Shown here piece after piece: positions 1 to 55,481 of a stretch of 64,000 bases of DNA. The stretch lies in contig JBBTRF010000001.1 of the NCBI GenBank assembly GCA_038065315.1, positions 230,413 to 294,412 on the forward strand, given 5' to 3'. A program made the position numbers and the translations under genes. This DNA is from Patescibacteria group bacterium. GTDB lineage: Bacteria; Patescibacteriota; Minisyncoccia; Phycocordibacterales; JBBTRF01. Position 1 is the first letter of the stretch. Every line of letters begins with the position of its first letter. Under the pieces are notes generated by a model, which worked only from the letters and a program-made list of their open reading frames with translations, had not been told where the DNA came from and searched no databases.

Positions 1-943
1 TCTCCTCTTTCTTTCCGCCCTTCAAATATTTCCACTGCTTCAAATCAGAATCCTTGATATAGAACTCAGCCGGAATCTTAGCCTCATCGTGCTCAACAAC
101 ATCTTTTAATAAAATCCTCTTACCTTTGTAATCCGGTGCCGTCTTTACCGTATAAACCTCTCGATCAATCATTACGCCAGAATTTTCAAACGGGCTTGCT
201 GATGGTTTTTCGGCAGAAAAATTCTCTGAGACCTTCTTCAGGTCGCCCTCAATAGAAAATTGCTCAAGCTCAGAAACGGTCTTTTCCGTAATCGGAAAAG
301 CTCTAGCAATAGTTCCACTCTTTAGAATCCAGTTCTTGATGGACTTTTCCTTCTTTATCGCTGAGTAAGGCACGGTTCCCTTCTTATATCCCAAGATAAA
401 CACTCTTCTTCTCCTCTGAGGCATGCCGTAGTCAGCAGCATTGACGACTCTCCATTCGACGATGTATCCAAGGTCAGCAAGCGAAGCAAGCATGACAGCA
501 AAATCTCGACCTCGTTGAGAAGCTGGTGACTTCAGGAGTCGGTCCACATTTTCGAGCATCAAAAAGTTCGGGGCCTTCTTTCCCTTGTTCTTCAAGATGT
601 TAAAGATGGACCACCATAGGACACCCTTCTTTCCATACAGACCTTTCGACTGTTGCAACGTGGTAGCAACGGAATAATCCTGGCAAGGAAAACCACCAAC
701 AAGTAGGTCGTGGTCAGGAATCTGCTTGAAGTCGTTCGCAATGACTTGTTGTATATCTTCACAAGAGTGGCCCTCCTTGCCGAACTTATGGATGTAGATA
801 TCCGAGGCGTGCTGCGTGCTCGCTCCAGGCTCCCATTGGCTACTCCAGACCATTCCGTAGGCATTGCCACCCTTTACGGCTTCCAAGCCAAGCCGGAATC
901 CACCCACACCCGCAAACAGCTCGACGACCTTTAGTTTTTTCAT
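1..943 (-). CDS. DNA (cytosine-5)-methyltransferase, partial: start codon at 943, C-terminus cut by window start
   Basis: Manual minus-strand translation from ATG at 943 gives MKKLKVVELFAGVGGFR (motif I FxGxGG), then GGFPCQ (motif IV), ENV (motif VI), QRRRRVF (motif VIII). The track ORF 592..870 is in a different frame and is spurious. AT-rich relative to core. Confidence 0.8.
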   Translation of the reverse strand, partial: MKKLKVVELFAGVGGFRLGLEAVKGGNAYGMVWSSQWEPGASTQHASDIYIHKFGKEGHSCEDIQQVIANDFKQIPDHDLLVGGFPCQDYSVATTLQQSKGLYGKKGVLWWSIFNILKNKGKKAPNFLMLENVDRLLKSPASQRGRDFAVMLASLADLGYIVEWRVVNAADYGMPQRRRRVFILGYKKGTVPYSAIKKEKSIKNWILKSGTIARAFPITEKTVSELEQFSIEGDLKKVSENFSAEKPSASPFENSGVMIDREVYTVKTAPDYKGKRILLKDVVEHDEAKIPAEFYIKDSDLKQWKYLKGGKKEE

Positions 944-992
944 TCCGTGATTATAGCAAGAGCCAGTAAATCGATCAAGTCGTTTTTGTTTC

Positions 993-2396
993 CTAATTTT
1001 CTATCGCTTTTTCGATGTATTTTGCGTTGAGCCAGAAACATTTCTTCATCTCCTTGGTTCCCTGAGGAGTTTCGACAGTATCGGAAGAATCCTTGCCGTG
1101 CGGGCGGACGTGAACAATGGAGCTATCCTTCATTTTTGGCAGGTCCTCGTATCGCCCCTCATTTATTGCATCAATAGTCTTCTGCCACACCCTCTCTGCC
1201 TCTGACAAGTCTTTCATCGGGAAGTTCCAGAACATAGTCTTTCGCAAAATGATATCGTCAGAGTCTTTCACCTTCTGAAATACAACGAAGAGAAACTTTT
1301 GCGTTTCTAGAAGAGCGTGCAGGTCAGCCATCTCCTCTGTGTCATCATCCTGCCAAACCTGAGTGACCAGGTCCTTATAGTCGAATGCGGGGAATGAAAT
1401 AGACTCACGGAGAGTTCCTGTATGTTCAAGCGTTAGCACCTTGAGAGTCACGTTCGCCTTTTCGAGTTCCTCGATTTTATTTGACTCAACACCAAAAATC
1501 CGGTTCACCAAGATTCGCTTGTAATTCTTTGATTCGCCAACAGACTTCCAACCTAATACTGCTGCTATTTCTTTATCGGTCTTACCGATAAAGGGTGCGA
1601 ATTCCTCATGAACCACAGCTTCGATTGTCTTCGCTTTAACTTTTTTTGCTCGTGCCTTCTCCAACAGTGAGTCCGCCTCCGTTTTGTTCCCCAGGAGATC
1701 TCGTTGAATTAGGTAATTTAGATATTGTTGCTTGAAAGAAAAAGCTCTTGGCTTCGCTGGAATACGTGAAGTCGGCTGATCTCGAAGGATACGGCTATTC
1801 TGTGCCTTAGTACAAGCCCCGAGATAGTACGTATCCCCCTCTGAAAGTAAGTGGGCTTCACCGGCTTTTATCTTTGCGACAATGAACTCCCAATCCCTCT
1901 GGATTTGCAAGATATCGTCAGCGGAAATATCGTTCACATTCAACAAGTCGAGTTGTTTAATGAACTTGAACTCGTGATCAACGATACTCTGTCCTTGCAT
2001 ATGAAGATAGAACATCAGGAGTAAGAACTTGTTTTTCTCTAGAAAAGAACTGCTCCGCCAGACCTCTTTTATCACCTCGTCATAATCAATCATTGAAAAA
2101 ACGAGTCTCTCCTTCGAAGTGTATTTTCTGGTTGGGTGTTTCTTAAGAGGATTGGTCTTTAGCTCGACGCCGGCAAGGTAAAAATCAGCCTCGTTCTTAT
2201 TGTCCGGCTCTTTACCAAAGACATAACGTTGAATGTAAATACCGAGCAACCCCTTCATCTTTGAACCATACCTACTCACTTCCGCCTCGACAGAACCTAT
2301 CTCATTCTTAGGAATAATGGAACGTAGATTCTTCTTGAGTATCTTCTGTGCGGCCGCAAACACCTCTTCCTTGGTCTTGAATTCTGTATTATTCAT
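993..2396 (-). CDS. Type II restriction endonuclease, Sau3AI/MutH family (likely GATC-specific)
   Basis: N-terminal region ...ADFYLAGVELKTNPLKKHPTRKYTSKERLVFSMIDYDEV...SSSFLEKNKF resembles the MutH/Sau3AI catalytic core (D..ExK, GVELKT). It lies 50 nt upstream of the C5-MTase on the same strand, and its 467 aa is close to Sau3AI size. Confidence 0.7.
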   Translation of the reverse strand: MNNTEFKTKEEVFAAAQKILKKNLRSIIPKNEIGSVEAEVSRYGSKMKGLLGIYIQRYVFGKEPDNKNEADFYLAGVELKTNPLKKHPTRKYTSKERLVFSMIDYDEVIKEVWRSSSFLEKNKFLLLMFYLHMQGQSIVDHEFKFIKQLDLLNVNDISADDILQIQRDWEFIVAKIKAGEAHLLSEGDTYYLGACTKAQNSRILRDQPTSRIPAKPRAFSFKQQYLNYLIQRDLLGNKTEADSLLEKARAKKVKAKTIEAVVHEEFAPFIGKTDKEIAAVLGWKSVGESKNYKRILVNRIFGVESNKIEELEKANVTLKVLTLEHTGTLRESISFPAFDYKDLVTQVWQDDDTEEMADLHALLETQKFLFVVFQKVKDSDDIILRKTMFWNFPMKDLSEAERVWQKTIDAINEGRYEDLPKMKDSSIVHVRPHGKDSSDTVETPQGTKEMKKCFWLNAKYIEKAIEN

Positions 2397-3054
2397 CTTG
2401 GTTTATATGATACTTTATTATGCTCAAATATGCATTTTTGGTCACAATAACATGATCAGTGAGATGAATATCAAGTATTTTGCCAGCATGAACAAGCTTC
2501 TTGGTCATTTCAATGTCTTCTCCGGAAGGCTGCGTGACTCCGGAGGGATGGTTGTGAGCCACGATAACACTCGCGGCACGTAAAGTGATGGCTGGTTCAA
2601 ATAATTCACGGGGGTGAGCAAGGCTTGCGTTGAGCGTACCAATCGAGATGACCTGTCTCTCTATTAGACAGTCCTGTGTGTCGAGATAGAAAGCGACGAA
2701 ATGTTCCTTTTTCGAATCTTTTATGTCCGAACAGAGTTTCCAGACATCAGTAGGAGATAGTACTTCCGTTTTCTGAACGGTAAAACGGTCCGTTAGTTCA
2801 AGGATGGATAAAACCTGAGCCGCCTTCGCCTTACCCAATCCCCTAATCGATAAAAGATGCTCGAGGCCAATCTTTTGCTTACCGATCTCGGAGATAAGCT
2901 CCAGTATCTTTTTTGAAAGCTGCAAGACATTCGAACCTTGGATACCGGAACCGAGAACTACAGCAAGAAGCTCTTGATCGGTGAGTCTTTTGACGCCATA
3001 CTTCTGCAATTTCTCACGAGGAAGGTCGACCTTTGGTAGTGACATCATTTTCAT
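2389..3054 (-). CDS. radC: RadC-like JAB/MPN domain protein (UPF0758)
   Basis: N-terminal HhH region (LTDQELLAVVLGSG), JAMM motif HNHPSG and downstream D. The gene overlaps the REase start by 8 nt. Confidence 0.8.
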   Translation of the reverse strand: MKMMSLPKVDLPREKLQKYGVKRLTDQELLAVVLGSGIQGSNVLQLSKKILELISEIGKQKIGLEHLLSIRGLGKAKAAQVLSILELTDRFTVQKTEVLSPTDVWKLCSDIKDSKKEHFVAFYLDTQDCLIERQVISIGTLNASLAHPRELFEPAITLRAASVIVAHNHPSGVTQPSGEDIEMTKKLVHAGKILDIHLTDHVIVTKNAYLSIIKYHINQDE

Positions 3055-3359
3055 ACGTTCAGAAAGTATGTCACTTCCGATACGAAAAAAGAAGCGAAAT
3101 CTTTATTAAGATTTTATCGATTTTTAAACAAGCCTTATTTTCTCTAGCTTTCCCGACAATCTTTTACTCGAAAAATAGCACTCCCGCATTGCGAAAACCC
3201 TCCACCCGAGTCGTCTCAGTGCCTGGATATTTCGTTTATCTCTCTTTATGTTCCTCTCGAACTTTTTCCTCCAAAATGCTTGGTTATGTTTAGGCAGCGG
3301 TAATTTAAACCTCGAACACGCATACCAGAAACAGCCATGGACGAAGACGACAATAACAG

Positions 3360-3587
3360 CTAACCATTCTCTAATTCGAATAGCTGGTCATCACTTAAAT
3401 CAAGTACCCCTCGACAATCCAAAAGTTGCATACGTAGCTCTTCTCGTTTAAGCAATTCTTCCGGGTCAATATGCTGAGGGGTCATCTTTTTCCCAGACAC
3501 ATAATTCCCAACTATAATTCTGGTTTTCTGGTCAAGTTCCAGGTACTCTTTATACAATTCCTCACAACGTGTTTTTTTGTCAGACAT
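3360..3587 (-). CDS. small hypothetical protein (75 aa), co-transcribed with the upstream HEPN-like gene
   Basis: ORF sits 4 nt downstream of the 3592..4254 gene on the same strand in an AT-rich island; no recognisable motif. Confidence 0.3.
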   Translation of the reverse strand: MSDKKTRCEELYKEYLELDQKTRIIVGNYVSGKKMTPQHIDPEELLKREELRMQLLDCRGVLDLSDDQLFELENG

Positions 3588-3591
3588 GTTT

Positions 3592-4254
3592 TTATATTTT
3601 CTCGGAAATATGTTCTATGGCATAGACGACAGCTCTGAACGTTTCAAGATTATCTCGCACTTCCTTTCTTGTTATTGGTCTAACCTTGCCGTGATGCTTA
3701 TTGCCATAGTATACATCATTTCTGTGAACAATTGAGTCTCGGCGTTCTGCCATAGTGGCAACTATCCCTCTAACATCCGCCCTTCTACCCTTCTTTTTCC
3801 TACCCGGCTTTATTGAAAGAAACTTATTAACCTGTTTCCAACCATCATTAATTTCCATCATTGAAAAGGCCATTTGAATTGACTCAGGTTTTTGAAAGGT
3901 AACAGAACCAAGAGACTCTTCTAAAAAATTTATCAATCTTTTGGTCGGATCTTTCTGAATAATCAGATTGGTCAATTCCTTGTAACCATCCTTATCTTTA
4001 AATTTACCCCTTATTCTTTCCACGCACCTTTCCGGAACTCGTTTTTTATGATGAATTATCTTGGTAATAATCTCGATGGTACGTTTATGGATATACGCAT
4101 CCAAAGCGGCGACGGTAAAAACAATTACGGCTCGAAGCAAATCAGCAGTCACCCCCTTGGAGGCAGGTCTTCCAATTGGAAACTTTTCCTCATGAAGCTT
4201 TAGCAGCTCTTCGGAACGCTGTATATTGAGAATGAAAAATTCAATAGCTCTCAT
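3592..4254 (-). CDS. HEPN-like domain protein (Abi/defence-associated), hypothetical
   Basis: Contains an Rx4H-type motif (ERRDSIVHRN) in a predicted helical region; basic 220-aa protein in the AT-rich island next to the R-M genes. Confidence 0.4.
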   Translation of the reverse strand: MRAIEFFILNIQRSEELLKLHEEKFPIGRPASKGVTADLLRAVIVFTVAALDAYIHKRTIEIITKIIHHKKRVPERCVERIRGKFKDKDGYKELTNLIIQKDPTKRLINFLEESLGSVTFQKPESIQMAFSMMEINDGWKQVNKFLSIKPGRKKKGRRADVRGIVATMAERRDSIVHRNDVYYGNKHHGKVRPITRKEVRDNLETFRAVVYAIEHISEKI

Positions 4255-4258
4255 AGTT

Positions 4259-6514
4259 TTAAGCCCTCTTCTTCCTCCTCACCTCCGTCACCCGTTTCGC
4301 TGCGGCGGCGCGCTCCTTTCGGTCGCCCTTCACCACAGCCCCAATCCGCTCCTCCAGTGCCTTCACTTCGTCGCGCAAAATAGCGGCCGTTTCGAAATCC
4401 AACACCTTCACGGACTCCTCCATTTCGGCTTCTTTGCGCTTGATCACCTTGCGAATCAGCTTTTCGGCCTCCGCAGCATCGGTCACACCAGCAAACTCCG
4501 CCTCGTCCACCGCGAGCAAGCCCTTCACCGCCTTGGCATGGTCGGTCTGGATCTGGTCGGTGATGTCTTTGATCGCCTTGATAATCGTCTGCGGCGTGAT
4601 GCCGTGCCTGGTGTTGTATTCTATCTGCAGGGCACGACGACGCGCCGTCTCCTTCATCGCCCGCTCCATCGAACCGGTGACCTCGTCGGCATACAAAATC
4701 ACGCGGCCAGCCGTATTTCGCGCCGCACGACCAATCGTCTGAATGAGCGCCATCTCCGAGCGCAGGAAGCCCTCCTTGTCTGCATCGAGAATACCAATGA
4801 ACGTCACCTCCGGCAGGTCGAGGCCTTCGCGCAAGAGGTTCACGCCCACGAGACAGTCGAATTTGCCGCGACGAAACTCTGTGAGAATCTGAATACGATC
4901 GATGGTCTTGATTTCGCTATGCAAATATTCGGCCTTGATCCCCTTCTCCTTCAAATATTCCGACAGGTCCTCCGCCATTTTCTTGGTGAGGGTCGTCGCG
5001 ATAACTCGCCCACCCTTTTTCACTTCTTTTTGGGTTTCGGCAATGAAGTCGAAAACTTGACTGGAATAAGAACCCTTTTTCTCAATGATTGGGCGAATCT
5101 CCACTTCTGGATCAAGGAGGCCAGTCGGTCGAATCACCTGCTCCGCGATCTGCCCATCGCCATCAGGACCGCCCTTAACGCTACGCTCGAGCTCATACTT
5201 GCCCGGCGTGGCGGTAGTGTAGATGCGCTGGCCGAGGCGTTCTTCGATCTCGTCGAATTTGAGCGGCCGATTGTCGCGTGCGCTTGGTAATCGGAAACCA
5301 TACTCCACGAGCGACTGCTTACGTGATGCATCGCCAGCAAACATACCGCCCAACTGCGGAATCGTCACGTGTGACTCGTCGATGATGGTGAGGAAATCCG
5401 GCTCGCCGAGATTGCCAACCGCGCTTGGAGCACCCTTCTTCACCGCCTTATGCGGAAAATACGAAATGAGCGTATCCGGCGGTGCGCCCGCAGGCATCCC
5501 GCTGAAGTGGCGCGAGTAGTTCTCGATGCCGTTGCAGTAGCCGACTTCGCGGATCAGTGCCAAATCATAGTTGGTGCGGCGTTTCAAACGCTCCGCCTCG
5601 AGATTCTTTCCCGCCGCTGCGAGCTCTTTGAGCCGCACATCCAGCTCGGCCTTAATCGTCTGCAAAGCCCGCTTCTGCCCTTCGTCCGTCGTAATGAAAT
5701 GTTTAGCCGGGAACAAAAAGAACGCGTCAACGTCGCCGATGATGCGGCGAGTGGTCGCGTCGATCTTCATGATTTCGCCGACCACTTCCACCGGCACTTC
5801 GGCGCCTTTGCCCGCTTTTTCCATTTTCGTCTCGAACCCAATCCGAAACAGCGCGCGCTCGTTCACCGGCATGATCTCGATCGAGTTGCCCAGCGCGCGG
5901 AAGGTACCTGGCGTCAAATCAGCGTTGGTGCGCTCATAGTGTATGTCGATGAAACGGCGCATCATGTCGGCACGATTGCCCTTCATGCCGCGCGCGATCT
6001 TCATGTTGACCTTCTCGTATTCAACAGGCGAACCCAGACCATAGATACAAGAGACGGTAGCGACGATGATGACATCCTTGCGCGTGAGCAGGGCCTGGGT
6101 CGACGCGTGGCGCAAGCGTTCGATCTCTTCGTTGATCATCGCCTCTTTTTCGATATAGGTGTCGGTGACGGGCATGTACGCCTCGGGCTGGTAGTAGTCG
6201 TAGTAGGAGACGAAATAATGCACCGCGTTGTCCGGGAAAAACTCTCGATATTCCTGCGCGAGCTGCGCCGCGAGCGTTTTGTTGTGAGCAATGACGAGCG
6301 TCGGCTTGCCAATCTGTTCGATGACATTGGCCGCGGTGAATGTCTTGCCCGAACCGGTCACACCAAGCAGGGTCTGATGTTTCATCCCCTTGCGCACGCC
6401 CTCGACGAGCATCTTGATCGCCTTCGGCTGATCGCCCGCCGGCGTGTGGCCACCGGTTTTGAGTTTGAAGGGTGAATTTGCGGCCGAATTTTCGTTTTTT
6501 GACGCGGCTTTCAT
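4259..6514 (-). CDS. uvrB: Excinuclease ABC subunit B (UvrB)
   Basis: Walker A GVTGSGKT, the beta-hairpin region, helicase motifs and the C-terminal UvrB/UvrC interaction domain are present. Start refined to the internal Met (MKAASK..., ATG at 6514), because the upstream extension in the track ORF runs through a repeat element. Confidence 0.95.
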   Translation of the reverse strand: MKAASKNENSAANSPFKLKTGGHTPAGDQPKAIKMLVEGVRKGMKHQTLLGVTGSGKTFTAANVIEQIGKPTLVIAHNKTLAAQLAQEYREFFPDNAVHYFVSYYDYYQPEAYMPVTDTYIEKEAMINEEIERLRHASTQALLTRKDVIIVATVSCIYGLGSPVEYEKVNMKIARGMKGNRADMMRRFIDIHYERTNADLTPGTFRALGNSIEIMPVNERALFRIGFETKMEKAGKGAEVPVEVVGEIMKIDATTRRIIGDVDAFFLFPAKHFITTDEGQKRALQTIKAELDVRLKELAAAGKNLEAERLKRRTNYDLALIREVGYCNGIENYSRHFSGMPAGAPPDTLISYFPHKAVKKGAPSAVGNLGEPDFLTIIDESHVTIPQLGGMFAGDASRKQSLVEYGFRLPSARDNRPLKFDEIEERLGQRIYTTATPGKYELERSVKGGPDGDGQIAEQVIRPTGLLDPEVEIRPIIEKKGSYSSQVFDFIAETQKEVKKGGRVIATTLTKKMAEDLSEYLKEKGIKAEYLHSEIKTIDRIQILTEFRRGKFDCLVGVNLLREGLDLPEVTFIGILDADKEGFLRSEMALIQTIGRAARNTAGRVILYADEVTGSMERAMKETARRRALQIEYNTRHGITPQTIIKAIKDITDQIQTDHAKAVKGLLAVDEAEFAGVTDAAEAEKLIRKVIKRKEAEMEESVKVLDFETAAILRDEVKALEERIGAVVKGDRKERAAAAKRVTEVRRKKRA

Positions 6515-6592
6515 TGAAAATGGATTATAACGTATTTTTCGAGGTTCGTAAATAAACCTGGCGCGATCGGCTGAGGTGCCGCGATATTTTTG

Positions 6593-6683
6593 AGTACCTA
6601 CGGATTTTTCATACTTTTTCATACAAAATATGAGAAAGTATGAAAAATCCGCACCTACTATTTTTCGCTGCGCCACCCCACCC
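6593..6683. repeat. Palindromic intergenic repeat element, copy A (~22-bp inverted arms AGTAGGTGCGGATTTTTCATAC / GTATGAAAAATCCGCACCTACT plus flanking box TTTTYCGCYGCRCCACCCC)
   Basis: Near-identical copies at 16564-16650, 40761-40838 and 48161-48250 (the last inverted). Copy A lies between the end of the 6790..7227 gene and the uvrB start. Confidence 0.75.
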
Positions 6684-6789
6684 AGACGAGCACCTCTCTC
6701 CGCGACAAGAAAAAACCGCCTCGCCAACCCTCCACACGGGAGAATCGACAAGGCAGTGAGTAGCGGCCGCGCAATAGCGGCGACAGAGG

Positions 6790-7227
6790 TCACATCATCG
6801 GGACCAAATCATGGTGCCCAAGCGCGAGGTCCGTCATCGTCCTCCGGTAAATCGCCCGACCTTCGCCGAGCAACACCATGAACTGTTCGTAGCGGCTTTT
6901 CAGCGCCTGCTTCACCGCAACGAACCATTTCATCTTGAGTCCGCGACGGATGGGCCGACGTTTCTCCAGGATCTTCGCAGCCTCGTCGAGCGCAACCACG
7001 GCACGCTTCAAGAGGGTGCGAGTAAGATGGCCGTCGTAAACATTGACGATGAAGTCAAGGACGTCGCTCACCGCCCGGCTGGCACGATTGAGGCGCTCGA
7101 TCTTTGGCCGGATAGGGTGCCGACAATAGTAGTTGCGGGCATTTTTCAGGTTGATGATGGCCTGCCTTAGGGCAGTCAGGCAGGGATGCGGAGGCTGCGG
7201 CTTGGGATGCTGTTTGAGGAGCTTCAT
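6790..7227 (-). CDS. hypothetical protein
   Basis: 145-aa ORF with GC-rich codon usage consistent with the core; no motif recognised. Confidence 0.4.
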   Translation of the reverse strand: MKLLKQHPKPQPPHPCLTALRQAIINLKNARNYYCRHPIRPKIERLNRASRAVSDVLDFIVNVYDGHLTRTLLKRAVVALDEAAKILEKRRPIRRGLKMKWFVAVKQALKSRYEQFMVLLGEGRAIYRRTMTDLALGHHDLVPMM

Positions 7228-12556: not shown

Positions 12557-13045
12557 CTAGACCAACACGAAGTAGAGGAAGAGTCCGAACATGAGCACGG
12601 CCAAACTACAATTCACCAACGCGCCCGTCGCTGAGCCGATGAGTCCGGCAGTAGCGGCTTTGAGGGCTGCTGCGTTACTTTTGCGTGCCACTACTTCTCC
12701 CGCAAAGATGCCGACGAACAAACCAACGATGCCCCCGAGTGGCGGAAAGGCGATGAGACCAACAATGAGTCCGAGGAATCCGAAAAGAATCGAGCGTCGA
12801 TCTGCCCCACCATATCGTGCGCCAAGTATGCCGGCGAAGTAATCGATGAAGAAAGATACGATGAGAATACCGCCAAGTACCGCAAGATTCTCCCAGGTGA
12901 TGTGTACGAAGCGATCGGAAATCGCAAAAAGCAATGCAATAAGAAACATGTACGAGATCGCCGGCAGAAACGGCACGAGCACTGCCGGAATACCCAGCGC
13001 CATGAATATCGCTGCAACCGCGAGAAGAATTGGGTGTTCAATCAT
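12557..13045 (-). CDS. DUF456-like integral membrane protein
   Basis: Four predicted TM helices and a Gly-rich C-terminal TM (GFLGLIVGLIAFPPLGGIVGLFVGIFAG). Confidence 0.5.
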   Translation of the reverse strand: MIEHPILLAVAAIFMALGIPAVLVPFLPAISYMFLIALLFAISDRFVHITWENLAVLGGILIVSFFIDYFAGILGARYGGADRRSILFGFLGLIVGLIAFPPLGGIVGLFVGIFAGEVVARKSNAAALKAATAGLIGSATGALVNCSLAVLMFGLFLYFVLV

Positions 13046-13932
13046 TTCTTCATTTTACCATAGCCGCTGCCGTATCCATATTCGTATTCATCCTCCTCGT
13101 CGATCTGGTCGTGCAATACGGCAACATCCTTCGCCAATGAGGCCGTCTCTGCATCTTCATCATCATACGGGTCAGAAGATGGCCCGGGAACAACAATAGA
13201 CACTTCGTCGAGCACGTCATACAGAATATTTGAGGGACAGGCTACGGGGATCCGATGAGACAAACACACGGGCTGGCTTCCCTGCACAAACACATCCAAC
13301 GCGCCCACGACGACACCAAGTATCTTGCAAGAATCGACGTCGATCAGCGGCGCGCCGCCATCGGCAAGCCAAGGTGCGCCGTCTATCTCGAGCAGTTCTG
13401 GCACGCCATTTTTGTCTTTCTGGACCGCACCGATCGAGCAAAGGTGTGTAAAGACTTTCGGCTGCCCTGCAGCGACTCGCTTCATATCAGCCTCATCCAC
13501 CCCATTCCGACACCTTGTTGCTGGGAAGCTGAGCGTAAACGCCTCCACCCCAGCGGTGAGACAGTCCTCGTTGGTTTCGAGATCATCCATCGAAAAGCCG
13601 ACTTCCTGGCGTTGCTCGAATCCAAATACAGCCAGCCCTCGTACGGTATCGGTGTCGATGAGCATGAGGTCGGCGGTCTGGTATACATCGACCCCGGCCT
13701 CGGTCTTTTGATACACTCCCGCAAAATACTGCCCGGCCGCCTTCTCCATCGCCTTGAAAACACTGAGTGACGTCACGGCAAACTGTCCGTCTACCGCAAA
13801 ACCAGTACCTTCGAAATGCACGGTTGATTGCTCAACCCCCATTTGTCTGGCACCGAGAAAGAGGAGGTTGCGACGAACTGAATCGATAATATGTTGTGTT
13901 GGCATGCGAATATGCTTATGAGTAATACCCAT
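13042..13932 (-). CDS. hypothetical protein with degenerate trypsin-like (S1) protease signature and an acidic C-terminal tail
   Basis: GTGFAV (His-region-like), TADLMLIDTD (Asp region) and ADGGAPL in place of GDSGGPL (Ser nucleophile replaced by Gly). The C-terminus is Asp/Glu/Tyr/Gly-rich. Confidence 0.35.
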   Translation of the reverse strand: MGITHKHIRMPTQHIIDSVRRNLLFLGARQMGVEQSTVHFEGTGFAVDGQFAVTSLSVFKAMEKAAGQYFAGVYQKTEAGVDVYQTADLMLIDTDTVRGLAVFGFEQRQEVGFSMDDLETNEDCLTAGVEAFTLSFPATRCRNGVDEADMKRVAAGQPKVFTHLCSIGAVQKDKNGVPELLEIDGAPWLADGGAPLIDVDSCKILGVVVGALDVFVQGSQPVCLSHRIPVACPSNILYDVLDEVSIVVPGPSSDPYDDEDAETASLAKDVAVLHDQIDEEDEYEYGYGSGYGKMKK

Positions 13933-13944
13933 AAGTAAAGCAAA

Positions 13945-14020
13945 CCAGTGATAGAGAAACTGCTAAAAAGTGTTCAAGAAAAGACTAATTTCCGATAAAG
14001 AAATCGTGAAAAAGTTCTAA
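13945..14020 (-). promoter_or_regulatory. Conserved upstream motif, copy 1 (shared with 36910-36979), immediately 5' of the 13042..13932 gene
   Basis: About 45 of ~50 nt are identical to the second copy: AAATTAGTMYTTTCTTGARYACTTTTTAGCARTTTCTCTATC (gene-sense strand), located about -25 to -70 from each ATG. It contains TTGAAC/TTGAGT-N18-TATC(A/G)-like promoter elements. Confidence 0.45.
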
Positions 14021-15900: not shown

Positions 15901-16422
15901 CTACCACTTCCGTCTGTCGCGACGATAACGCGGCGGCACACCCGGTTGGCTATGACGCATGCTGTCGGATGGCGGCGTTTGGGACCGAGCGCGAGTCGAG
16001 GGTAGCAGGATGGCAAAATCCGAAGGCTTGAGCGGGACTTCACCCAGGTCGAAGGGGGACGGCAGCTGGATGGCCATACTATCGAGCGCCGCCCTCAGTG
16101 CTTCTTCAGGCTTTTGCCCATCCTCGAGGGACAGCGCAAAATGTGGCGGATCATCGCTGTTGATGTCTTTGACATACAGATCAAAGCCAAGAGACAAGCG
16201 GATGCGGTTGGCAAGCAATTCGTCCACCAGCCAATTGGGACAAGCCCACACATTGCGGCGACAGGGCTGACCGACAATGTCGCAACAAGTGAAATCGAGA
16301 CATTCTTGCGTGGTCACCGCCTGTGCGAGCTGTTCGGCGATGAAGGCATTGGTCCTTGCGTCGCCTTTTGGATCAACGTAGCAGACGAGGCTGCTATGGA
16401 TGGGACGAGTGAGACTTAGCAT
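15901..16422 (-). CDS. Cys-rich hypothetical protein
   Basis: Cys cluster CLDFTCCDIVGQPCRRNVWACPNW. Start chosen at the Met with a GGAG 8 nt upstream (ATG at 16422). Confidence 0.4.
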   Translation of the reverse strand: MLSLTRPIHSSLVCYVDPKGDARTNAFIAEQLAQAVTTQECLDFTCCDIVGQPCRRNVWACPNWLVDELLANRIRLSLGFDLYVKDINSDDPPHFALSLEDGQKPEEALRAALDSMAIQLPSPFDLGEVPLKPSDFAILLPSTRARSQTPPSDSMRHSQPGVPPRYRRDRRKW

Positions 16423-16563
16423 AAGTAACTCCAGGGATGTGATGTCGGTGTTCCGACTGGTTTTCAAACAACGCGAATGGAATAATTAAACCGCGACACG
16501 GTCACTTTGTCAAGAAAATATCCGGACGATGTGAACAAGTGGGTGGGTCCGCCGACTTTTTTG

Positions 16564-16650
16564 AGTAGGTGCGGATTTTTCATACAAATTCATACAAAGT
16601 ATGAAGAAGTATGAAAAATCCGCACCTACTGTTTTCCGCCGCACCACCCC
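16564..16650. repeat. Palindromic intergenic repeat element, copy B
   Basis: AGTAGGTGCGGATTTTTCATAC...GTATGAAAAATCCGCACCTACT plus the GTTTTCCGCCGCACCACCCC box; begins 13 nt after the stop of the 16664..17518 gene. Confidence 0.75.
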
Positions 16651-16663
16651 TGCTCCACCTGCT

Positions 16664-36527: not shown

Positions 36528-36893
36528 TCAGAATCGTCTTAACGCGTGTCTTTTTTCACCGATAATAGCGACCATTCCCCAATACTCAATTTCCTTCATC
36601 GGAATAGCGCCGTCAGTGGCGGATTTTTTCCCAATTGGTGACAGAACTTTTCGATACTCTTGAATAGTGCCAGACTTTTCGATAATTTCCAGACCAAGAG
36701 GAAGGAGGCTGAATTTAAACAACTGTTCTTTTTGCTCCCTAGGCATTCGGCCGGAAAACTGCAAATGAGAAAAGCCATCGGAGTTTAGTATGACCTTTGT
36801 TTTAAAATACGGACTATATATTTCCCTTCTCGCAAGATATATTTCTCTTGCCCTATGTCTTCTTTCATTAAAATAGATTGGATTGATCTCCAT
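36528..36893 (-). CDS. hypothetical protein (AT-rich)
   Basis: 121-aa ORF at ~33% GC, preceded by conserved upstream motif copy 2. Confidence 0.4.
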   Translation of the reverse strand: MEINPIYFNERRHRAREIYLARREIYSPYFKTKVILNSDGFSHLQFSGRMPREQKEQLFKFSLLPLGLEIIEKSGTIQEYRKVLSPIGKKSATDGAIPMKEIEYWGMVAIIGEKRHALRRF

Positions 36894-36909
36894 ACCGTAC
36901 AGTATAGAA

Positions 36910-36979
36910 GATGACCGATAGAGAAATTGCTAAAAAGTACTCAAGAAAGTACTAATTTTTGTTAAAGAAAATCTAAAAT
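36910..36979 (-). promoter_or_regulatory. Conserved upstream motif, copy 2 (see 13945-14020)
   Basis: GATAGAGAAATTGCTAAAAAGTACTCAAGAAAGTACTAATTT, near-identical to copy 1, immediately 5' of the 36528..36893 gene. Confidence 0.45.
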
Positions 36980-38317: not shown

Positions 38318-40153
38318 ATGAGAACGTTTCTCTTGTTCACAGCGGCATTCCTCGCCTGCTTCGCCCACACGCCGCTGACACAGTCCGTCTGCGGTGCAAC
38401 GCTCTCCGTGAGCACGACTGGCCCGGCGTATCAGACCTTCGTCCCGGGTTCTCCGCAAGGAACCTACCTGGCAGTGACCCTCAGCGCATCAGCGGAAGAA
38501 GACGTTCGCATGTCTGCTCTACCGCTCATGTTGACCGTCGCCAACAGTGCGATGCCGACACAGCTCAGCAACATGAGACTGTGGGATGGCACGGTGGCAC
38601 TGAACACTGGCGCAAATACGTTGAACCCTGCATCCACTGGGACCAACACCACAACCTTTGATCAGTCTCTCGTCATCCCGAAAGGAACGACGAAGACGCT
38701 GCTCCTCAAAGGTTCAGTCTCCTCCTCCGCGGCCGGCACCTTTCGCTGGAGCCTCGGTTCGGGGCTAATCGCGACAGGTATCACAAGTTCTCAGCTCGCC
38801 AGCATTTCCATCGATACGGCCGCAAACCTGTCGACGACAATGTATGGCAGTCTGGGGACTCATCCGGCGATCACCTCGTTCACCCCACAGCTTGGCGGAA
38901 TCGCCGTCATCTATCAGGTGAATGGTGTCGCCGGATTGCCCTTCGCAATCTATGCATCGAGTGATTTGGTCAACTGGACAAGGCGCGCCTCGCTCACATT
39001 CGGAGCTAGCGGACAATTTGTTCTCTGGGATTTTCCGGACGCACAGCGGCAGTTCTACAAAGCTGTCACCGAGTGGCCGAGCCGGCTCGCCATCTCCACA
39101 AGTTCCACCAGTCCCCGCTACAAAATAGCGTCGGGTGGTGCGACCAATGTGACGATGGCGGCCTATACCGTTCGCACCGAATACGAGGCGGTCAATCTGG
39201 ACAGGATCGGCCTCCGACTCACACAAGGCAGCGCAAGCGACCTTGGACAAGTGACGGTGTGGGATGGCACAAACCAGATCGGTTCGACCGTCTTTGTCGG
39301 TGGCAATGTCTACGCGGTCTGCACGTTCGCGAGCCCGCTCCTCATCCCCAAGGATGGAGAGCGGACTCTGACGATCAAGGCAGATGTCGAAAACATCCTG
39401 TTTATCGGCGGCTATGGAGTCGTCGGTCCTTCAGGACACCTCATCGCCATCGATTACGACGACTCGAATCTGCAGCGGACTGTGGGGACGGGTGTGGAAT
39501 CCGGACAAACCATCACTGCGTCTGGCACAACCGCCGTGGCCGGAGTGAGGATCTTCAAATCCCACCCGAGCTTCGCCATCGACCAGCTTCCGGGAACGGG
39601 AGTGGCTGACGAACGGCTCTTGCGCTTCAAAGTCACCGCGGACACAGCGGGTAGCGCGAGTCTCCACAAGCTCTCGTTCTTCGTCGAAGCGATTGGTGCA
39701 TCGATGTGGAACATGAACTTGTATGCCTACGAGGACTCGAGCTACTCGATCCCCGTGAGCGGAGTGGGTGCTGGCGGCAAGGTCTCCAACACCAACTTCT
39801 TCGCCGGCCTCGTGGAGGTTCGGGCACAGACGTCAACAGGTGCCGCCTCAGCCATCGTGATCCCGGCAGGCCAGACCCGCTACTTCGAGCTTCGGAGTTC
39901 GGTGCTTAACCAGTCGTCCACAACAGTGGTCTACGCCAGACTCCTCTCGGACGACTACTGGCCACAAGGTCCGACGATCGACGCCAGTTTGGACAGTGCG
40001 CTGTTCTTGGACCAATACAGCTTCCACAAGAACATCCTCTGGTCTCCAGACACGCTCGGTCCCGTTCAACCGGGCACGAGCTTCGACTGGACGAATGGAT
40101 ATGGATTGCCTGGCCTCATGCCGGCGACCATCGTCCAAGTGCGCACGCCGTAA
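38318..40153 (+). CDS. Secreted hypothetical protein with internally duplicated beta-rich domains
   Basis: Signal peptide MRTFLLFTAAFLACFAHTP; two similar segments (LWDGTVALNTGANT / VWDGTNQIGSTVFV). Ser/Thr/Gly-rich. Confidence 0.55.
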   Translation: MRTFLLFTAAFLACFAHTPLTQSVCGATLSVSTTGPAYQTFVPGSPQGTYLAVTLSASAEEDVRMSALPLMLTVANSAMPTQLSNMRLWDGTVALNTGANTLNPASTGTNTTTFDQSLVIPKGTTKTLLLKGSVSSSAAGTFRWSLGSGLIATGITSSQLASISIDTAANLSTTMYGSLGTHPAITSFTPQLGGIAVIYQVNGVAGLPFAIYASSDLVNWTRRASLTFGASGQFVLWDFPDAQRQFYKAVTEWPSRLAISTSSTSPRYKIASGGATNVTMAAYTVRTEYEAVNLDRIGLRLTQGSASDLGQVTVWDGTNQIGSTVFVGGNVYAVCTFASPLLIPKDGERTLTIKADVENILFIGGYGVVGPSGHLIAIDYDDSNLQRTVGTGVESGQTITASGTTAVAGVRIFKSHPSFAIDQLPGTGVADERLLRFKVTADTAGSASLHKLSFFVEAIGASMWNMNLYAYEDSSYSIPVSGVGAGGKVSNTNFFAGLVEVRAQTSTGAASAIVIPAGQTRYFELRSSVLNQSSTTVVYARLLSDDYWPQGPTIDASLDSALFLDQYSFHKNILWSPDTLGPVQPGTSFDWTNGYGLPGLMPATIVQVRTP

Positions 40154-40222: not shown

Positions 40223-40760
40223 TTGCTTACAAAATAAAAAATATGAAAAGAAAGAGACCCAGCCAGCGAATGCACTCGCCAACTGGGTCCACCAACCAAA
40301 CCGCGCGGAAACAACAATCGCGCGAACCATCACCGACAACCGACCCCATACGACCCCACCGTCCCGAGAAGACGGCCTGGCGTAGAGCGACAAGGACACA
40401 TCACCTGATGTCGGCATTACACCGAACCGGTACGGAACCGGCAGCCCTTGAGATAATTGATCACCCCTTTCTCACTGCCCCTCGAAGGCAGTTTCGTGTT
40501 CAAGGTTGAGGAAACCTGAACCGTGACCGCTCCGGCCATCTGGTGGCGTAGCGCTCCGGTCCCCGTTGCGTTTACTGGTGTGGCGATTCCACATGTGTCG
40601 CTTGGTTTTCCTTCCGTCTTGTATCTATCGATCTTTTTTGAGCCGGTCGAGCTCGATCGACTGAGTTGTTGTGACCTCTGGCCGCTTATTATTGTATACC
40701 TCCTCTCAGAAAAAGTGAAGCCGCGAATCGGCAAGGGCGGCTACCTGTCAACACTTTTTA

Positions 40761-40838
40761 GGTGGTGCGGATTTTTCATACAAAAGTATGAGAAAAGTAT
40801 GACGAATCCGCACCTACTCTTTTTCTCGTCGCCACCCC
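40761..40838. repeat. Palindromic intergenic repeat element, copy C
   Basis: GGTGGTGCGGATTTTTCATAC...GTATGACGAATCCGCACCTACT plus CTTTTTCTCGTCGCCACCCC. It starts at the nucleotide after the dus stop and is followed (minus strand) by a separate GC hairpin with a T-tract at 40700-40745. Confidence 0.75.
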
Positions 40839-42017
40839 TCACTGTCCGATACCACCCACAACATCTCTCACCTCAGCGGCAGAATTGGTCTGCATCAGCA
40901 AGGCACGCAACTCTTTCGCTCCCTCCCAACCGTGCACATACGCTTTGTAATGCTTCTTCATGATCGAGAAATTCTTCAAATCGCCAAGTAGTTTTTCGAA
41001 GAGCTCCGTATGTTCCACCATCACTCGCAAGCGCTCAGCGATCTGCTCTTTGTTATAAAAATGATCGACGCCGAGCACGCCACCGCCAAAGCCGACCGCG
41101 CCGCCAGTCGCTTGATCGACGCCCTTGCCGCCAGCGTTTGTGTCGACATGCATGGATGAGCTTTCGTCAAACAACCACGGGTTGCCAAAAATAGCACGGC
41201 CGAGCATTACGCCGTCCGCACCGCTCACTCGCGCCTTTTCGCGTGCATCAGCCAGATTACGCGCGTCGCCGTTGCCAAAAATGAGTGTGCGTGTTTCGGC
41301 TGGCAAATGCGCCTGAAGGCGATCGCGGATCTCCACGGCCTCTCGTACATGTTCCCAACGCGCCGGTACCAATGACAGCTCTTTGCGGTTGCGGGCATGG
41401 ACCGTGATCATCGCGGGTCGCTCAGCAAGAAGAGCGGGGAGCCAAGTAGCCAGCTCGTTCTTGCCATAGCCAATGCGCGTCTTCACCGACACAGCCGGCA
41501 CCGGCTTCCCGTACTTCTTTGCACCATTGGCGGCGCCACGAATCGCGGCTCGCAGCACTCGGCGCGCAACTCGCGGACTTTTGATCATCCCCGCTCCAGC
41601 TCCCTGCTTCTCGATACTCTTGTCTGGACAACCCATATTGATATCAATGCCATCAAACCCCATCTCCACCGCGAGTTCGGCTGCCTGCTCCATGTGTGCC
41701 GGATTCGAAGTGAAAAACTGCGCAATAATCGGCCGCTCACCCTCGCTATACAACAGGTCTCGCAGCAATTTGTCTCGCCCAATTTTTGGTGCACGCGCAA
41801 GTCCATCCGCTGACACAAACTCCGTCCACATCGCATCCGGCCGACTGTACTTCGCGATGATCCGTCGAAATGCCGCGTCTGTGACATCCGCCATCGGCGC
41901 CAACACAAACAATGGGCCGGATTTGGCCTGTTTCAATCGGTACCACAAATCGCCACTCTCTACTTGCGGTGAAAAAGCGCGCGTCACTACATCGGAAATA
42001 TTCAGAAAAAAATTCAT
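40839..42017 (-). CDS. dus: tRNA-dihydrouridine synthase (Dus) with a C-terminal extension
   Basis: GIDINMGCP motif with catalytic Cys, FMN-binding TIM-barrel signature; 392 aa. Confidence 0.8.
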   Translation of the reverse strand: MNFFLNISDVVTRAFSPQVESGDLWYRLKQAKSGPLFVLAPMADVTDAAFRRIIAKYSRPDAMWTEFVSADGLARAPKIGRDKLLRDLLYSEGERPIIAQFFTSNPAHMEQAAELAVEMGFDGIDINMGCPDKSIEKQGAGAGMIKSPRVARRVLRAAIRGAANGAKKYGKPVPAVSVKTRIGYGKNELATWLPALLAERPAMITVHARNRKELSLVPARWEHVREAVEIRDRLQAHLPAETRTLIFGNGDARNLADAREKARVSGADGVMLGRAIFGNPWLFDESSSMHVDTNAGGKGVDQATGGAVGFGGGVLGVDHFYNKEQIAERLRVMVEHTELFEKLLGDLKNFSIMKKHYKAYVHGWEGAKELRALLMQTNSAAEVRDVVGGIGQ

Positions 42018-48133: not shown

Positions 48134-48160
48134 TCGGCAATGCTCAAAAAGTTTCAATGG

Positions 48161-48250
48161 GGGGCGGTGGCGGAGCAAAAAAGTGCCTACGGATTTGTCA
48201 TACGAAAGTATGAGGAAAGTATGAAAAATCCGAGGGTACTCGAAAACGCT
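48161..48250. repeat. Palindromic intergenic repeat element, copy D (inverted orientation)
   Basis: GGGGCGGTGGCGG box then AGTGCCTACGGATTTGTCATAC...GTATGAAAAATCCGAGGGTACT; starts 28 nt after the dprA stop. The box orientation matches the other copies relative to the upstream gene. Confidence 0.7.
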
Positions 48251-48257
48251 GGCGGGG

Positions 48258-48539
48258 CTAGTCGCGATATTCCCAACGATTATTCAACTTGTTGATAGTC
48301 TTACCAGAGAATACCTTTGTCATACCGAGCGGAGTAATCTTCTTTTTATACGGACTCTTAGATAGCACCCTGGATACAGTTGCCTTATGTACGTAGGGCA
48401 TTGATTTATGATTTCTGAGTAACTTGAAGAAATGAATCTGATCAATCGTCAGCTCAGCATTATCGCCGCATTGTGAGGTTCTTACTGCTTTGTTGAGAGC
48501 GGCGGCAACTAGGTCTGCTGTTTTGTTGATTGTTGTCAT
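48258..48539 (-). CDS. small hypothetical protein, weak HU/IHF-like resemblance (AT-rich)
   Basis: 93 aa; the N-terminus MTTINKTADLVAAAL resembles the HU N-terminus. Sits between repeat copy D and tRNA-Arg. Confidence 0.3.
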   Translation of the reverse strand: MTTINKTADLVAAALNKAVRTSQCGDNAELTIDQIHFFKLLRNHKSMPYVHKATVSRVLSKSPYKKKITPLGMTKVFSGKTINKLNNRWEYRD

Positions 48540-48555
48540 GTTTTATAGAATTAAG

Positions 48556-48627
48556 TACCCTCGGGAGGATTTGAACCTCCGCGTTCTCGCTAGAATCGAG
48601 ACAGTCTATCCATTAGCTTACGAGGGC
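48556..48627 (-). tRNA. tRNA-Arg (anticodon UCU)
   Basis: Manual fold: acceptor GCCCTCG/CGAGGGT (G1:U71), anticodon stem TCTCG/CGAGA with loop ATTCTAG, T-arm GGAGG-TTCAAAT-CCTCC, discriminator A, no encoded CCA. Confidence 0.8.
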
Positions 48628-48719
48628 AGAAAAAATAAAGCGCTGAGCCATAGCGCCAGTAGGTCCTTTATCTTCTGCGTCTCGTAAACACAGCCGGTAT
48701 CATTGCCTTCAATATAGCA

Positions 48720-50225: not shown

Positions 50226-50226
50226 A

Positions 50227-50619
50227 TTAAAATAGATGCTTATATTCTCGATAATTCTCCCTCACGATTCTCTGCCACTCAGCCGTTTCGTTGTGACTGG
50301 CGATGTCGGTTTTGCCATAGACGAGTAGCACGCTGACACATTGTTTTTCTTCATGCCACGCCACAATACACCGATTACCCGATGTCCTTGCAGATTCCTT
50401 GGTCCGATCGACTCGAAATTCAGTCTTCACGATCTTAATACCCTCGACATCACAGATCGTCTCAGCCCTGCTGGTAGTGATGAGGAGATCAATACGCTCA
50501 AGCCCAGCAATAATAGCTCTCAGAGTCACTTCCCAATGACCTTTGTACTTCTTCTCAAAACCTTTGATAAAGTGCCTTTCCGCAAAAGGTTCAATTCGTA
50601 CAGAATAGTTTCCCTGCAT
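50227..50619 (-). CDS. Putative toxin, RelE/ParE-superfamily-like (partner of the Panacea antitoxin)
   Basis: C-terminal GNRCIVAWHEEKQCVSVLLVYGKTD resembles the RelE/ParE core G.yRiiY...v.vl.i.hR. Starts 8 nt after the HTH-Panacea gene stop. Confidence 0.35.
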   Translation of the reverse strand: MQGNYSVRIEPFAERHFIKGFEKKYKGHWEVTLRAIIAGLERIDLLITTSRAETICDVEGIKIVKTEFRVDRTKESARTSGNRCIVAWHEEKQCVSVLLVYGKTDIASHNETAEWQRIVRENYREYKHLF

Positions 50620-50626
50620 ACATGTA

Positions 50627-51328: not shown

Positions 51329-51432
51329 GCATCAAGTATATGCAATGGATGTAAAGAAGTCAAGCAGGTTTGGTGGGTTATTTTACAAGTCTGATACGAA
51401 GAATGCAGTAACGTGATAAAACCGCTCTATAA

Positions 51433-53439: not shown

Positions 53440-53442
53440 ATT

Positions 53443-53790: not shown

Positions 53791-53794
53791 ATAT

Positions 53795-54847: not shown

Positions 54848-54930
54848 TACCCTACGTCGACTTCAATACGAGTATCGTATCACTTTTCACCTTCGCCAGC
54901 ACGACATCCTGCGCTCTCCACCACCGCCGC

Positions 54931-55401: not shown

Positions 55402-55481
55402 AACACTTTCTATTATACTACGCTCCACGAACACACCTCGTACTTGCCACGCTCCACTCCTTAATGTAATACTTAGCTTCA

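Follow-up and report, generated by a model that had tools for sequence, protein, structure and literature searches.

REPs are extragenic, multi-copy palindromes found mainly downstream of genes, between unidirectional or convergent ORFs, and their units are self-palindromes of 20-40 bp, one end of which bears an unpaired GTAG or CGTC tag (PMC3733652). Correia elements are described as forming hairpins upon co-transcription, which can serve as substrates of RNase III or influence the expression of neighboring genes (PMC2649163). Here, we analyzed a 64,000-nt stretch of DNA from a Patescibacteria group bacterium (the window) containing four copies of a palindromic repeat, which with a probability of roughly 60% are lineage-specific, non-coding and non-autonomous mobile elements of the MITE/REP/Correia class. 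The family is apparently undescribed so far among the bacterial interspersed palindromic repeats and first noted in this CPR clade. No paper linking Saccharibacteria or Patescibacteria with such a repeat was found in the literature and no Rfam family matched: the scan of the window gave only three tRNAs, and the element itself had only generic miRNA-hairpin matches (13-35 bits vs. thresholds of 45-219).

The repeat shares several properties with REPs, BIMEs and REPINs, namely an extragenic position mostly downstream of genes in unidirectional or convergent gaps, a long hairpin with compensatory pairing, the lack of an obvious target duplication, vertical persistence at some sites and genome-specific sequence variants. 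In contrast to REPs, its single arms are not self-complementary and carry no unpaired tag; GTAG lies within the stem of only some copies (GTAGGTGC), with GTAC in others. REPs of Proteobacteria are mobilised by RAYT tyrosine transposases, whereas no RAYT (Y1 transposase) gene was seen in the sampled loci, and the host as a CPR bacterium is outside the phyla listed for tagged REPs. With the Correia elements of Neisseria and, by extension, ERIC, RUP and the Rickettsia palindromic elements, the repeat has in common a non-coding unit of ~100-150 bp with long inverted ends and a variable core, a density of about one copy per 10-20 kb, an intergenic location by gene ends and presence or absence between related genomes. 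It differs by having neither a TA target duplication nor a promoter-like site in its ends, by its GGGG...CCCC GC-box ends and by a centre of phased hexamers, and a sequence relationship is not evident. Like TIR-type MITEs, it is small and non-coding, with long inverted repeats, slightly unlike ends comparable to IRL and IRR, insertion polymorphism and, at two or three sites, possibly a T-rich duplication of 7-9 bp; unlike them, it lacks a consistent target-site duplication, its termini are the least conserved part and no parent IS was found in ~300 kb.

Intrinsic and bidirectional terminators have the stable stem, the flanking A/T runs and the position 3' of genes in common with the repeat, but here the runs are direct (A...A or T...T) and not complementary, the A...T form is absent, the 23-45-bp stem is AT-rich in its centre, the orientation is untied to the upstream gene and the sequence is conserved between unrelated loci. 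Integron attC sites differ as well, since the repeat has no cassette array, no GTTRRRY in its ends and housekeeping genes as surroundings. Further resemblances, which we take to be leads, are to LexA/SOS boxes, CIRCE boxes, the Pho box (TGTCATA), the dif/Xer arm (GGTGCG), the Haemophilus USS core (GTGCGG) and an FRT-like three-site layout; the ends presumably resemble those of the IS1016 group (GGGgctg, 7-9-bp duplication) and the GGGG ends of Tn3.

All four copies of the original prediction were recovered in the window at their predicted positions. The 22-nt arm GTATGAAAAATCCGCACCTACT matched six times with up to three mismatches (0.00 expected, 100 shuffles), repeat finding linked all four loci (direct families D1, D5 and D6; inverted repeats I1-I5), and an nhmmer profile built from 26 family copies returned exactly four elements (Table 1), which lie 7-24 kb apart among housekeeping genes. 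Both arms are perfect in copy B, where they can be extended to 32 nt at 91%. Copy A has three mismatches in one arm, copy C has 2+2 mismatches, and the more diverged copy D was recovered only by the repeat and profile searches. A length of ~90 bp and a GC-rich box on one side only had been proposed; the whole unit turned out to be a palindrome of ~100-120 bp with a second, weaker and more degenerate GC box on the opposite side. Copy B has a symmetric centre and the boxes GGGTGGGTCCGCCGAC and CCGCCGCACCACCCC.

Table 1. Features of the four copies in the window and occupancy of the corresponding sites in relatives. Each copy is assigned to the strand that shows both of its runs as A, i.e. the gene-sense strand.
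Feature	Coordinates	Strand	Details
Copy A, whole element	6568..6684	-	arms 6593-6614 and 6638-6659; centre of four hexamers
Copy A, GC boxes	~6570-6586 and 6666-6684
Copy A, neighbours	6790..7227 (upstream gene)		upstream, 145-aa gene with its own terminator; downstream, uvrB
Canonical intrinsic terminator	6757->6715	-	19-bp stem and T6; between gene 6790..7227 and copy A
uvrB promoter-like site	6524..6552	-	TTTACG-17-TATAAT; just downstream of copy A
Site A (upstream of uvrB)			filled: window, JBAXTI01 (L034); empty: L031
Copy B, whole element	16537..16658	-	perfect 22-nt arms 16564-16585 and 16609-16630; centre of four hexamers
Copy B, neighbours	16664 (upstream stop); 15901..16467 (downstream gene)		upstream, PD-(D/E)XK/Cas4-like nuclease; downstream, 188-aa gene (Pfam)
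Site B (3' of PD-(D/E)XK)			filled: window, JBAXTI01 (L034); empty: CAZRTH01 (L004), L031, L035
Copy C, whole element	40733..40845	-	arms 40760-40781 and 40797-40818; centre of three hexamers
Copy C, neighbours	40839-40841 (upstream stop codon)		upstream, dus, abutting; downstream, non-coding unit
Promoter-like site downstream of copy C	40719->40691
Site C (3' of dus)			filled: window, CAZRTH01 (L045); empty: L043, L044
Copy D, whole element	48156..48254	+	arms 48182-48203 and 48219-48240; centre of three hexamers
Copy D, neighbours	48133 (upstream stop); 48258..48539 (convergent ORF)		upstream, dprA; convergent 93-aa ORF with its stop 3 nt past the element
Site D (3' of dprA)			filled: window, JBAXTI01 (L010), CDFZDD01 (L043), CAZRTH01 (L045); empty: L044

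In gene sense, A-runs are present on both sides of the element in all four copies, with the described A-run/U-run asymmetry of the two strands, and copy D is indeed inverted on the chromosome together with dprA. The predicted placement directly behind a stop codon is right for the copies at dus (0 nt), the PD-(D/E)XK/Cas4-like gene (13 nt) and dprA (27 nt) but not for copy A, where the nearest stop codon is 106 nt away and a canonical terminator lies between. Both this terminator and the uvrB promoter-like site are conserved in both L034 and L031. The long ORF 4259..6793 represents uvrB with a false extension through copy A; the true uvrB ATG is located at 6514-6512, and the spacing between the predicted promoter and this ATG suggests that the uvrB mRNA is probably leaderless. 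The ORFs containing KKYEKSAPT had rightly been suspected as artefacts of the repeat, as KKYEKSAPT and RKYEKSAPT are translations of its arm.

Altogether, 34 copies at ~26 sites were found in at least four related genomes and in metagenome contigs, all of them intergenic. CAZRTH01, labelled Candidatus Saccharibacteria, contains at least 14 copies and JBAXTI01 contains 5, with others in CDFZDD01, the window MAG and contigs from lakes and groundwater. Scanning with a gapped inner-arm pattern gave 13 loci in two MAGs of a species-representative genome collection (CAZRTH01 and JBAXTI01), 11 family loci in metagenomes (lakes, Hainich groundwater) and none in viral contigs, and profile searches added diverged copies including a TG/CA subfamily. 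Loci are labelled as follows: L034 and L010 belong to JBAXTI01, L004 and L045 to CAZRTH01, L043 to CDFZDD01 and L030 to the window's own population (Hainich groundwater). Five pattern matches representing unrelated palindromes were left out (L001, L023, L025, L028 and L029). The phage and plasmid collections searched held no relevant match; three matches to Providencia plasmids were rejected as noise (35% of the query covered, E=0.007).

The search of related genomes for the element places the family in one genus-level group of Saccharibacteria, ultra-small bacteria from groundwater and lakes. A DprA search revealed a tight group of ~8 relatives with 75-82% identity, followed by a drop to 55%. 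By protein identity, the host group appears to correspond roughly to a genus, and all elements found fall within it as far as it was sampled. Over several proteins, the identity to the window decreases from L043 (~89%) to JBAXTI01 (~87%), L031/L044 (~81%) and CAZRTH01 (~79%). The density of the repeat is roughly one copy per 10-16 kb.

With both runs oriented as A, the consensus of 31 copies reads GGGGTGGCGCAGC / A5-6 / GAGTACCTGC / GGATTTGTCATAC / GAAAGTATGAGGAAA / GTATGACAAATCC / GCACCTACTC / A5C / ACTGACGGACACCCC. It corresponds to a GC box, an A5/T5 run, a 23-bp arm and a hexamer centre, followed by the mirror image, and the element ends in GGGGTG...CACCCC. The centre consists of phased TCATAC/GTATGA hexamers, 9-11 bp apart and in 3-5 copies; three is the usual number, with four in window copies A and B and in L020, and four arranged as 3+1 in L019. 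The outer arm has two alleles, GTAGGTGC and GTACC(T/C)GC, and in the commonest form these are opposed as a C·C/C·C (or G·G) mismatch. The inner arm is the most conserved part and the termini the least, where the apparent invariance of the inner arm is partly an ascertainment effect because the collection scans demanded exact inner arms. Each half bears an A-run or a T-run, and 25 elements have direct-repeat runs (A...A or T...T) and six have T...A, whereas the A...T arrangement is missing from all 31 copies (~5 expected, p ~0.004). An origin of the A/T runs as target-site duplications, with the GC boxes as halves of pre-existing terminators, was rejected: box-like 10-11-mers outside the elements occur at the random rate, inside genes and with no adjoining runs, indicating that the boxes belong to the repeat and that the runs are internal.

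Among the functions considered in the original prediction, a REP/MITE-like mobile mini-element is the best-supported one, based on the multi-copy family and on presence and absence in synteny. Whole elements are present in some and absent from other syntenic relatives at all four window sites (Table 1). Gain or loss concerns the complete unit, while the surrounding DNA stays syntenic, and the same gap can be occupied independently in different lineages, as at site C. At site A, the window and L034 show the order canonical terminator, element, promoter and uvrB, whereas in the empty L031 the T-run of the terminator runs directly into the -35 box. In the filled genomes, the element is flanked on its two sides by TTTTTTCTT and by TTTATT or TTTTCTT, compared to a single TTTTTATT in L031, so that a T-rich duplication of 7-8 bp is possible from this comparison. 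L004 is syntenic to positions 14-24.5 kb of the window; it has a 66-bp spacer at site B and a copy two genes beyond it, at a position taken up by a 47-bp spacer in the window. In L035, with an empty site B, the -35 box of the promoter overlaps the stop codon.

Of the relatives sampled, L043 is the closest, with a Dus 92% identical to that of the window, and its site C is empty; in both L043 and L044 the dus stop codon abuts the next promoter. The CAZRTH01 copy at this site lies 66 nt from the dus stop, behind a small terminator, in the opposite orientation and belongs to the TG/CA subfamily; from these features it would most simply be a separate insertion from copy C. At the empty site D of L044, only 7 nt separate the dprA stop from a convergent TspO gene. 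One clade member has no element at any of the four window sites and none in its 40 kb.

The dnaK-dnaJ gap contains an orthologous copy in three genomes, with a common downstream flank and decayed outer arms, the latter fitting long vertical retention. Copies are also found 3' of dprA in four genomes and upstream of uvrB in two, and such common sites could just as well have been retained vertically for a long time under selection. In their arms, copies A and B agree to 90%, and their JBAXTI01 orthologues are 83% and 74% alike to them. Copies C and D are present in each of seven near-identical contigs from the Hainich, where single SNPs are the only differences, and no insertion polymorphism was seen within this population.

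The repeat has the general features of a MITE: it is short, non-coding and multi-copy (100-120 bp; 34 copies) with arms of at least 23 bp and inverted GC boxes, and it shows insertion polymorphism among related genomes. Over 31 copies, the best flanking repeat was 4.4 nt long compared to 4.05 nt in the null model, giving no signal for a target duplication of fixed length. Possible flanking duplications are seen at single sites, namely the T-rich 7-8 bp at site A relative to the empty L031 and a 9-mer in L021. In ~300 kb of sampled clade DNA, we found no transposase, multi-copy ORF, solo arm or longer unit with the same ends, and a Pfam scan of ~60 neighbouring proteins detected no transposase. 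The missing transposase, the lack of a consistent duplication, the conservation of the inner arm over the termini and the lack of insertion polymorphism within the population all count against mobility.

Folding confirmed the predicted hairpin. As RNA, the four copies gave z-scores from -10.2 to -1.8 on both strands; seven of the eight folds reached -3.7 or beyond, and the gene-sense strand of copy C was the weakest (z -1.82; 9 of 200 shuffles at least as stable). Folded as DNA, the gene-sense strands ranged from -10.6 to -3.9, with copy A at -10.6 (RNA: -10.2/-6.0) and RNA values of -9.6/-7.5 for copy B. Over 25 copies, 88% of the arm cells pair, and pairing collapses to 23-45% in slid arm registers. 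Two-sided changes affect 7 of the 23 pairs (GT/AC, TT/AA, TG/CA; GG/CC) and amount to 31 cells, compared to 15.8±2.9 in shuffles, none of 500 reaching 31. The G·U counts of the two strands are equal (12 vs. 14), indicating that the constraint is not on one RNA strand and that the hairpin is formable by either strand; an RNA acting on one strand was rejected on the same counts. The constrained hairpin could consist of DNA, either single-stranded or cruciform, or of RNA in either orientation; another possibility is that copying has homogenised the arms.

The proposed bias towards stop codons also holds for the family as a whole. All copies are intergenic, most begin within ~30 nt of a stop codon, and the median gap from the outer box is ~26 nt to the upstream stop and ~70 nt to the next start. 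The gene contexts are mostly co-directional pairs, some are convergent and one is divergent (L014:2433). A single orientation relative to the upstream gene was found for four of four copies in the window but does not extend to the family: at independent sites, asymmetric copies have A-runs in sense nine times and U-runs in sense eight times. Within a genome the orientation is uniform, since the window and JBAXTI01 have A-runs in sense in 5/5 copies and CAZRTH01 has U-runs in sense in 6/7 (Fisher p=0.015 for the difference between genomes), and it is opposite between genomes even at the same sites C and D. This uniformity counts against random insertion, which does not predict it. Two features deserve to be followed, namely the orientation pattern across whole genomes and the exclusion of the A...T form.

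A dedicated terminator of convergent or antisense transcription, the first function suggested for the hairpin, is unsupported as the element's reason to exist. With A-runs flanking all four window copies, no U-tract follows the stem in gene sense, and the terminator scan of the window called no copy in the sense direction. The orientation to the terminated gene is not fixed (9 A-sense, 8 U-sense and six symmetric T...A copies), and copy A lies behind a separate canonical terminator. Nor is the element a sole or required terminator, as the orthologous sites are empty and without a substitute in L031, L035, L043, L044 and L004; ordinary terminators with a GC-rich stem and a T-tract are used elsewhere in the genome. 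The bidirectional form (A-run 5', T-run 3') is the very arrangement that is missing from the 31 copies. A role as dedicated terminator is therefore unlikely.

A broader version of this idea is an RNA element selected by the host, whose 3' hairpin terminates, protects or processes the transcript, with mobility being ancient or irrelevant. Copies within ~30 nt of a stop codon leave no room for another terminator (B, C and D in the window), one strand has a stem followed by U5-6, CAZRTH01 puts this strand in gene sense in most of its asymmetric copies, copy D provides the convergent minus-strand genes with a stem and U-run, ending 3 nt after the stop, and pairing is kept by two-sided changes. We nevertheless consider it unlikely. 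Besides the balanced overall orientation, the A-runs in gene sense in the window and JBAXTI01, the terminator preceding copy A, the ordinary terminators elsewhere and the missing bidirectional arrangement, relatives whose sites are empty have the next promoter directly at the stop codon or terminator, there is no strand-specific G·U excess, and it is the sequence and not the structure alone that is conserved.

Somewhat less probable still is a DNA site for a host protein, i.e. an operator or nucleoid-associated site, a recombination site or an uptake signal, in which hexamers and A-tracts would serve recognition or bending. The 3-5 hexamers at a spacing of 9-11 bp and the high conservation of the inner arms across genomes are in agreement with such a site, as are the sites common to several genomes and the neighbouring genes. 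According to Pfam annotation of ~40 flanking proteins, 11 of 23 sites adjoin genes of DNA replication, repair or recombination (dnaE, holB, dnaB, gyrB twice, recA, uvrB, dprA/topA, PD-(D/E)XK, an alkylation-repair gene and scpA); other neighbours are dnaK/dnaJ, pyrG and a sigma factor, tRNA synthetases, secY/adk and rplK. The enrichment has p = 0.0002 to 0.03 for an assumed background of 8-15% but loses significance at 20%, and it may only reflect which genes sit at operon boundaries. Moreover, two-sided changes (GT/AC, TT/AA, TG/CA) are expected for base pairing and not for independent protein half-sites, copies lie 3' of genes as often as 5', one clade member does without the element at the four sites and in its 40 kb, and an exclusively intergenic repeat with ~1 copy per 16 kb does not resemble known uptake sequences.

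A repeat integrated by the host and selected for its hairpin, acting as an orientation-dependent insulator or terminator, a globally invertible switch, or a recombination or uptake signal in naturally competent CPR bacteria, would give one cause for the repair, replication and competence neighbours, the genome-wide orientation and the exclusion of the bidirectional form; we rate this as slightly less probable again. Far less probable is an invertible switch in the strict sense, where the segment between the outer GC boxes would flip a stem with a U-tract (terminator) to a stem with an A-tract (non-terminator), possibly coordinated genome-wide. The outer boxes are inverted repeats, by a hand tally of copies the centre lies one way round relative to the flanks in 14 and the other way in 6, and the uniform orientation within and opposite orientation between genomes, even at sites C and D, would fit such a switch. 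On the other hand, all seven assemblies of the window population show one orientation, no invertase was seen beside any of the copies, the boxes, short and degenerate, would enclose only ~75 bp, and the site C copies differ in position and subfamily, which fits separate insertions better. Least probable of all is a small RNA gene or micro-ORF within the element, where a strong predicted structure and GAGGAAA 5 nt ahead of an ATG on the A-run strand are opposed by the lack of a promoter-like site inside any copy, the missing Rfam family with miRNA-hairpin matches below threshold, the origin of the arm ORFs (KKYEKSAPT) as palindrome mirror artefacts overlapping real genes and the symmetry of the strands in G·U counts.

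If the copies are mobile palindromic repeats, as we favor, they may be spread by a putative enzyme that acts in trans and would recognise the folded single-stranded hairpin or the conserved inner arms. The hairpin would then be what this enzyme, or a copying process, needs. Insertion would favor T-rich stretches, for instance the T-tracts of terminators, and the element would settle where a gene end and the following promoter leave one of the scarce AT-rich intergenic gaps. The copies do occupy the few permissive gaps that these compact genomes have, in most cases with a stop codon or terminator on one side and the next promoter on the other. Once co-transcribed, the 23-45-bp stem would form in the 3' UTR and may act secondarily as a 3' hairpin, and by analogy with Correia elements and REPs, protection from exonucleases, a target for RNase III or a terminator-like effect in the U-run orientation would be by-products.

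Genomes of CPR bacteria (Patescibacteria) are ~1 Mb in size and tightly packed, and they are generally held to contain few repeats and little mobile DNA. The dispersed family analyzed here, with a copy in about every 10-16 kb, shows that REP-/Correia-like elements occur even in CPR genomes. It explains contig breaks in assemblies of the clade as well as spurious ORFs, such as KKYEKSAPT-type peptides and the over-extended uvrB, and it offers a marker for strain typing and for the lineage. Furthermore, in organisms where very few transposases are annotated, it points to a putative enzyme that handles hairpin DNA. Should complete genomes bear out the genome-wide orientation pattern or the link to DNA-repair genes, the family would be a case in which host use of such repeats can be tested.

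Across the window and the loci of related genomes and metagenome contigs (L002-L045), the orientation of the palindromic element relative to transcription is constant within a genome and reversed between genomes. In the transcript sense of the upstream gene, both runs of the element read as A in 5/5 copies from the window and JBAXTI01, and as U in six of seven copies from CAZRTH01 (p=0.015). Even the dus and dprA sites, which genomes have in common, show this reversal. An A-run in the 5' half of the element with a T-run in the 3' half, the combination that would make a bidirectional terminator, occurred in 0/31 copies, compared to about 5 expected.

Contigs of the relatives often stop inside the element or a few hundred bp away (L002, L003, L006, L016, L017, L020 and the ends of L041 and L045), and the element is therefore a recurrent assembly breakpoint in their MAGs.

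Upstream of uvrB, where L031 has no copy of the element, this locus carries a canonical terminator (20500-20560) whose descending arm GAGGTGCGGCGGGCGGTTTTTATTTAC is similar to the element arm GTAGGTGCGGATTTTTCATAC, and MAFFT aligned the two arms with each other. This likeness may be a coincidence or may hint that the element arms derived from terminator halves. The uvrB promoter itself is kept in L034 (JBAXTI01) and L031, and the uvrB mRNA appears to be leaderless, because of where the TATAAT and the ATG lie (see table). The plus-strand ORF 5450..6475, for which the Pfam search gave no match, is a shadow of uvrB.

Features of the window beside the palindromic element
Feature	Position	Strand	Context
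uvrB promoter and start	6512-6552	minus	TATAAT 6529-6524, ATG 6514-6512
Low-GC (41-45%) block, the second	1-4254		directly downstream of uvrB
C5 DNA methylase			in block 1-4254
MutH/Sau3AI-like endonuclease			in block 1-4254
RadC			in block 1-4254
HEPN RiboL-PSP protein			in block 1-4254
79-nt AT-rich repeat	13925-14003 and 36892-36970		intergenic; distinct from the palindromic element
Non-coding unit, ~400-440 nt	~40250-40698	minus	between copy C and gene 38318..40153
Low-GC (39-48%) island	48258-55480		between copy D and TspO/topA
93-aa ORF			in island 48258-55480
tRNA	48556-48627	minus	in island 48258-55480
DUF2779 protein			in island 48258-55480
HTH+SocA/Panacea antitoxin			in island 48258-55480
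Schlafen-like helicase (668 aa; GIY-YIG and S24 peptidase domains)			in island 48258-55480
MazG-like protein			in island 48258-55480
RhuM			in island 48258-55480

The low-GC block beside uvrB is likely a restriction-modification/defence cluster. The island next to copy D, probably a defence island that has integrated there, is missing from L010, L043 and L044; in these three loci dprA, either the element or TspO, and topA are direct neighbours. Repeat finding in the window also yielded two copies of a 79-nt repeat with 76% identity. Each closely precedes a minus-strand gene (13042..13932 and 36528..36893, respectively), and the repeat may be a promoter or leader that the two genes share.

The non-coding unit beside copy C is conserved, with orthologues in L043 (CDFZDD01), L044 and L045 (CAZRTH01), and has its own promoter (TTCACT-17-TATACAAT) as well as a strong terminator. 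RNAalifold on four sequences gave 89 pairs, 21 of them with compensatory change. An Rfam search of the unit returned no match, and ORF 40417..40734, without a match in the Pfam search, is probably spurious. The unit is a candidate for a new structured RNA of the clade.
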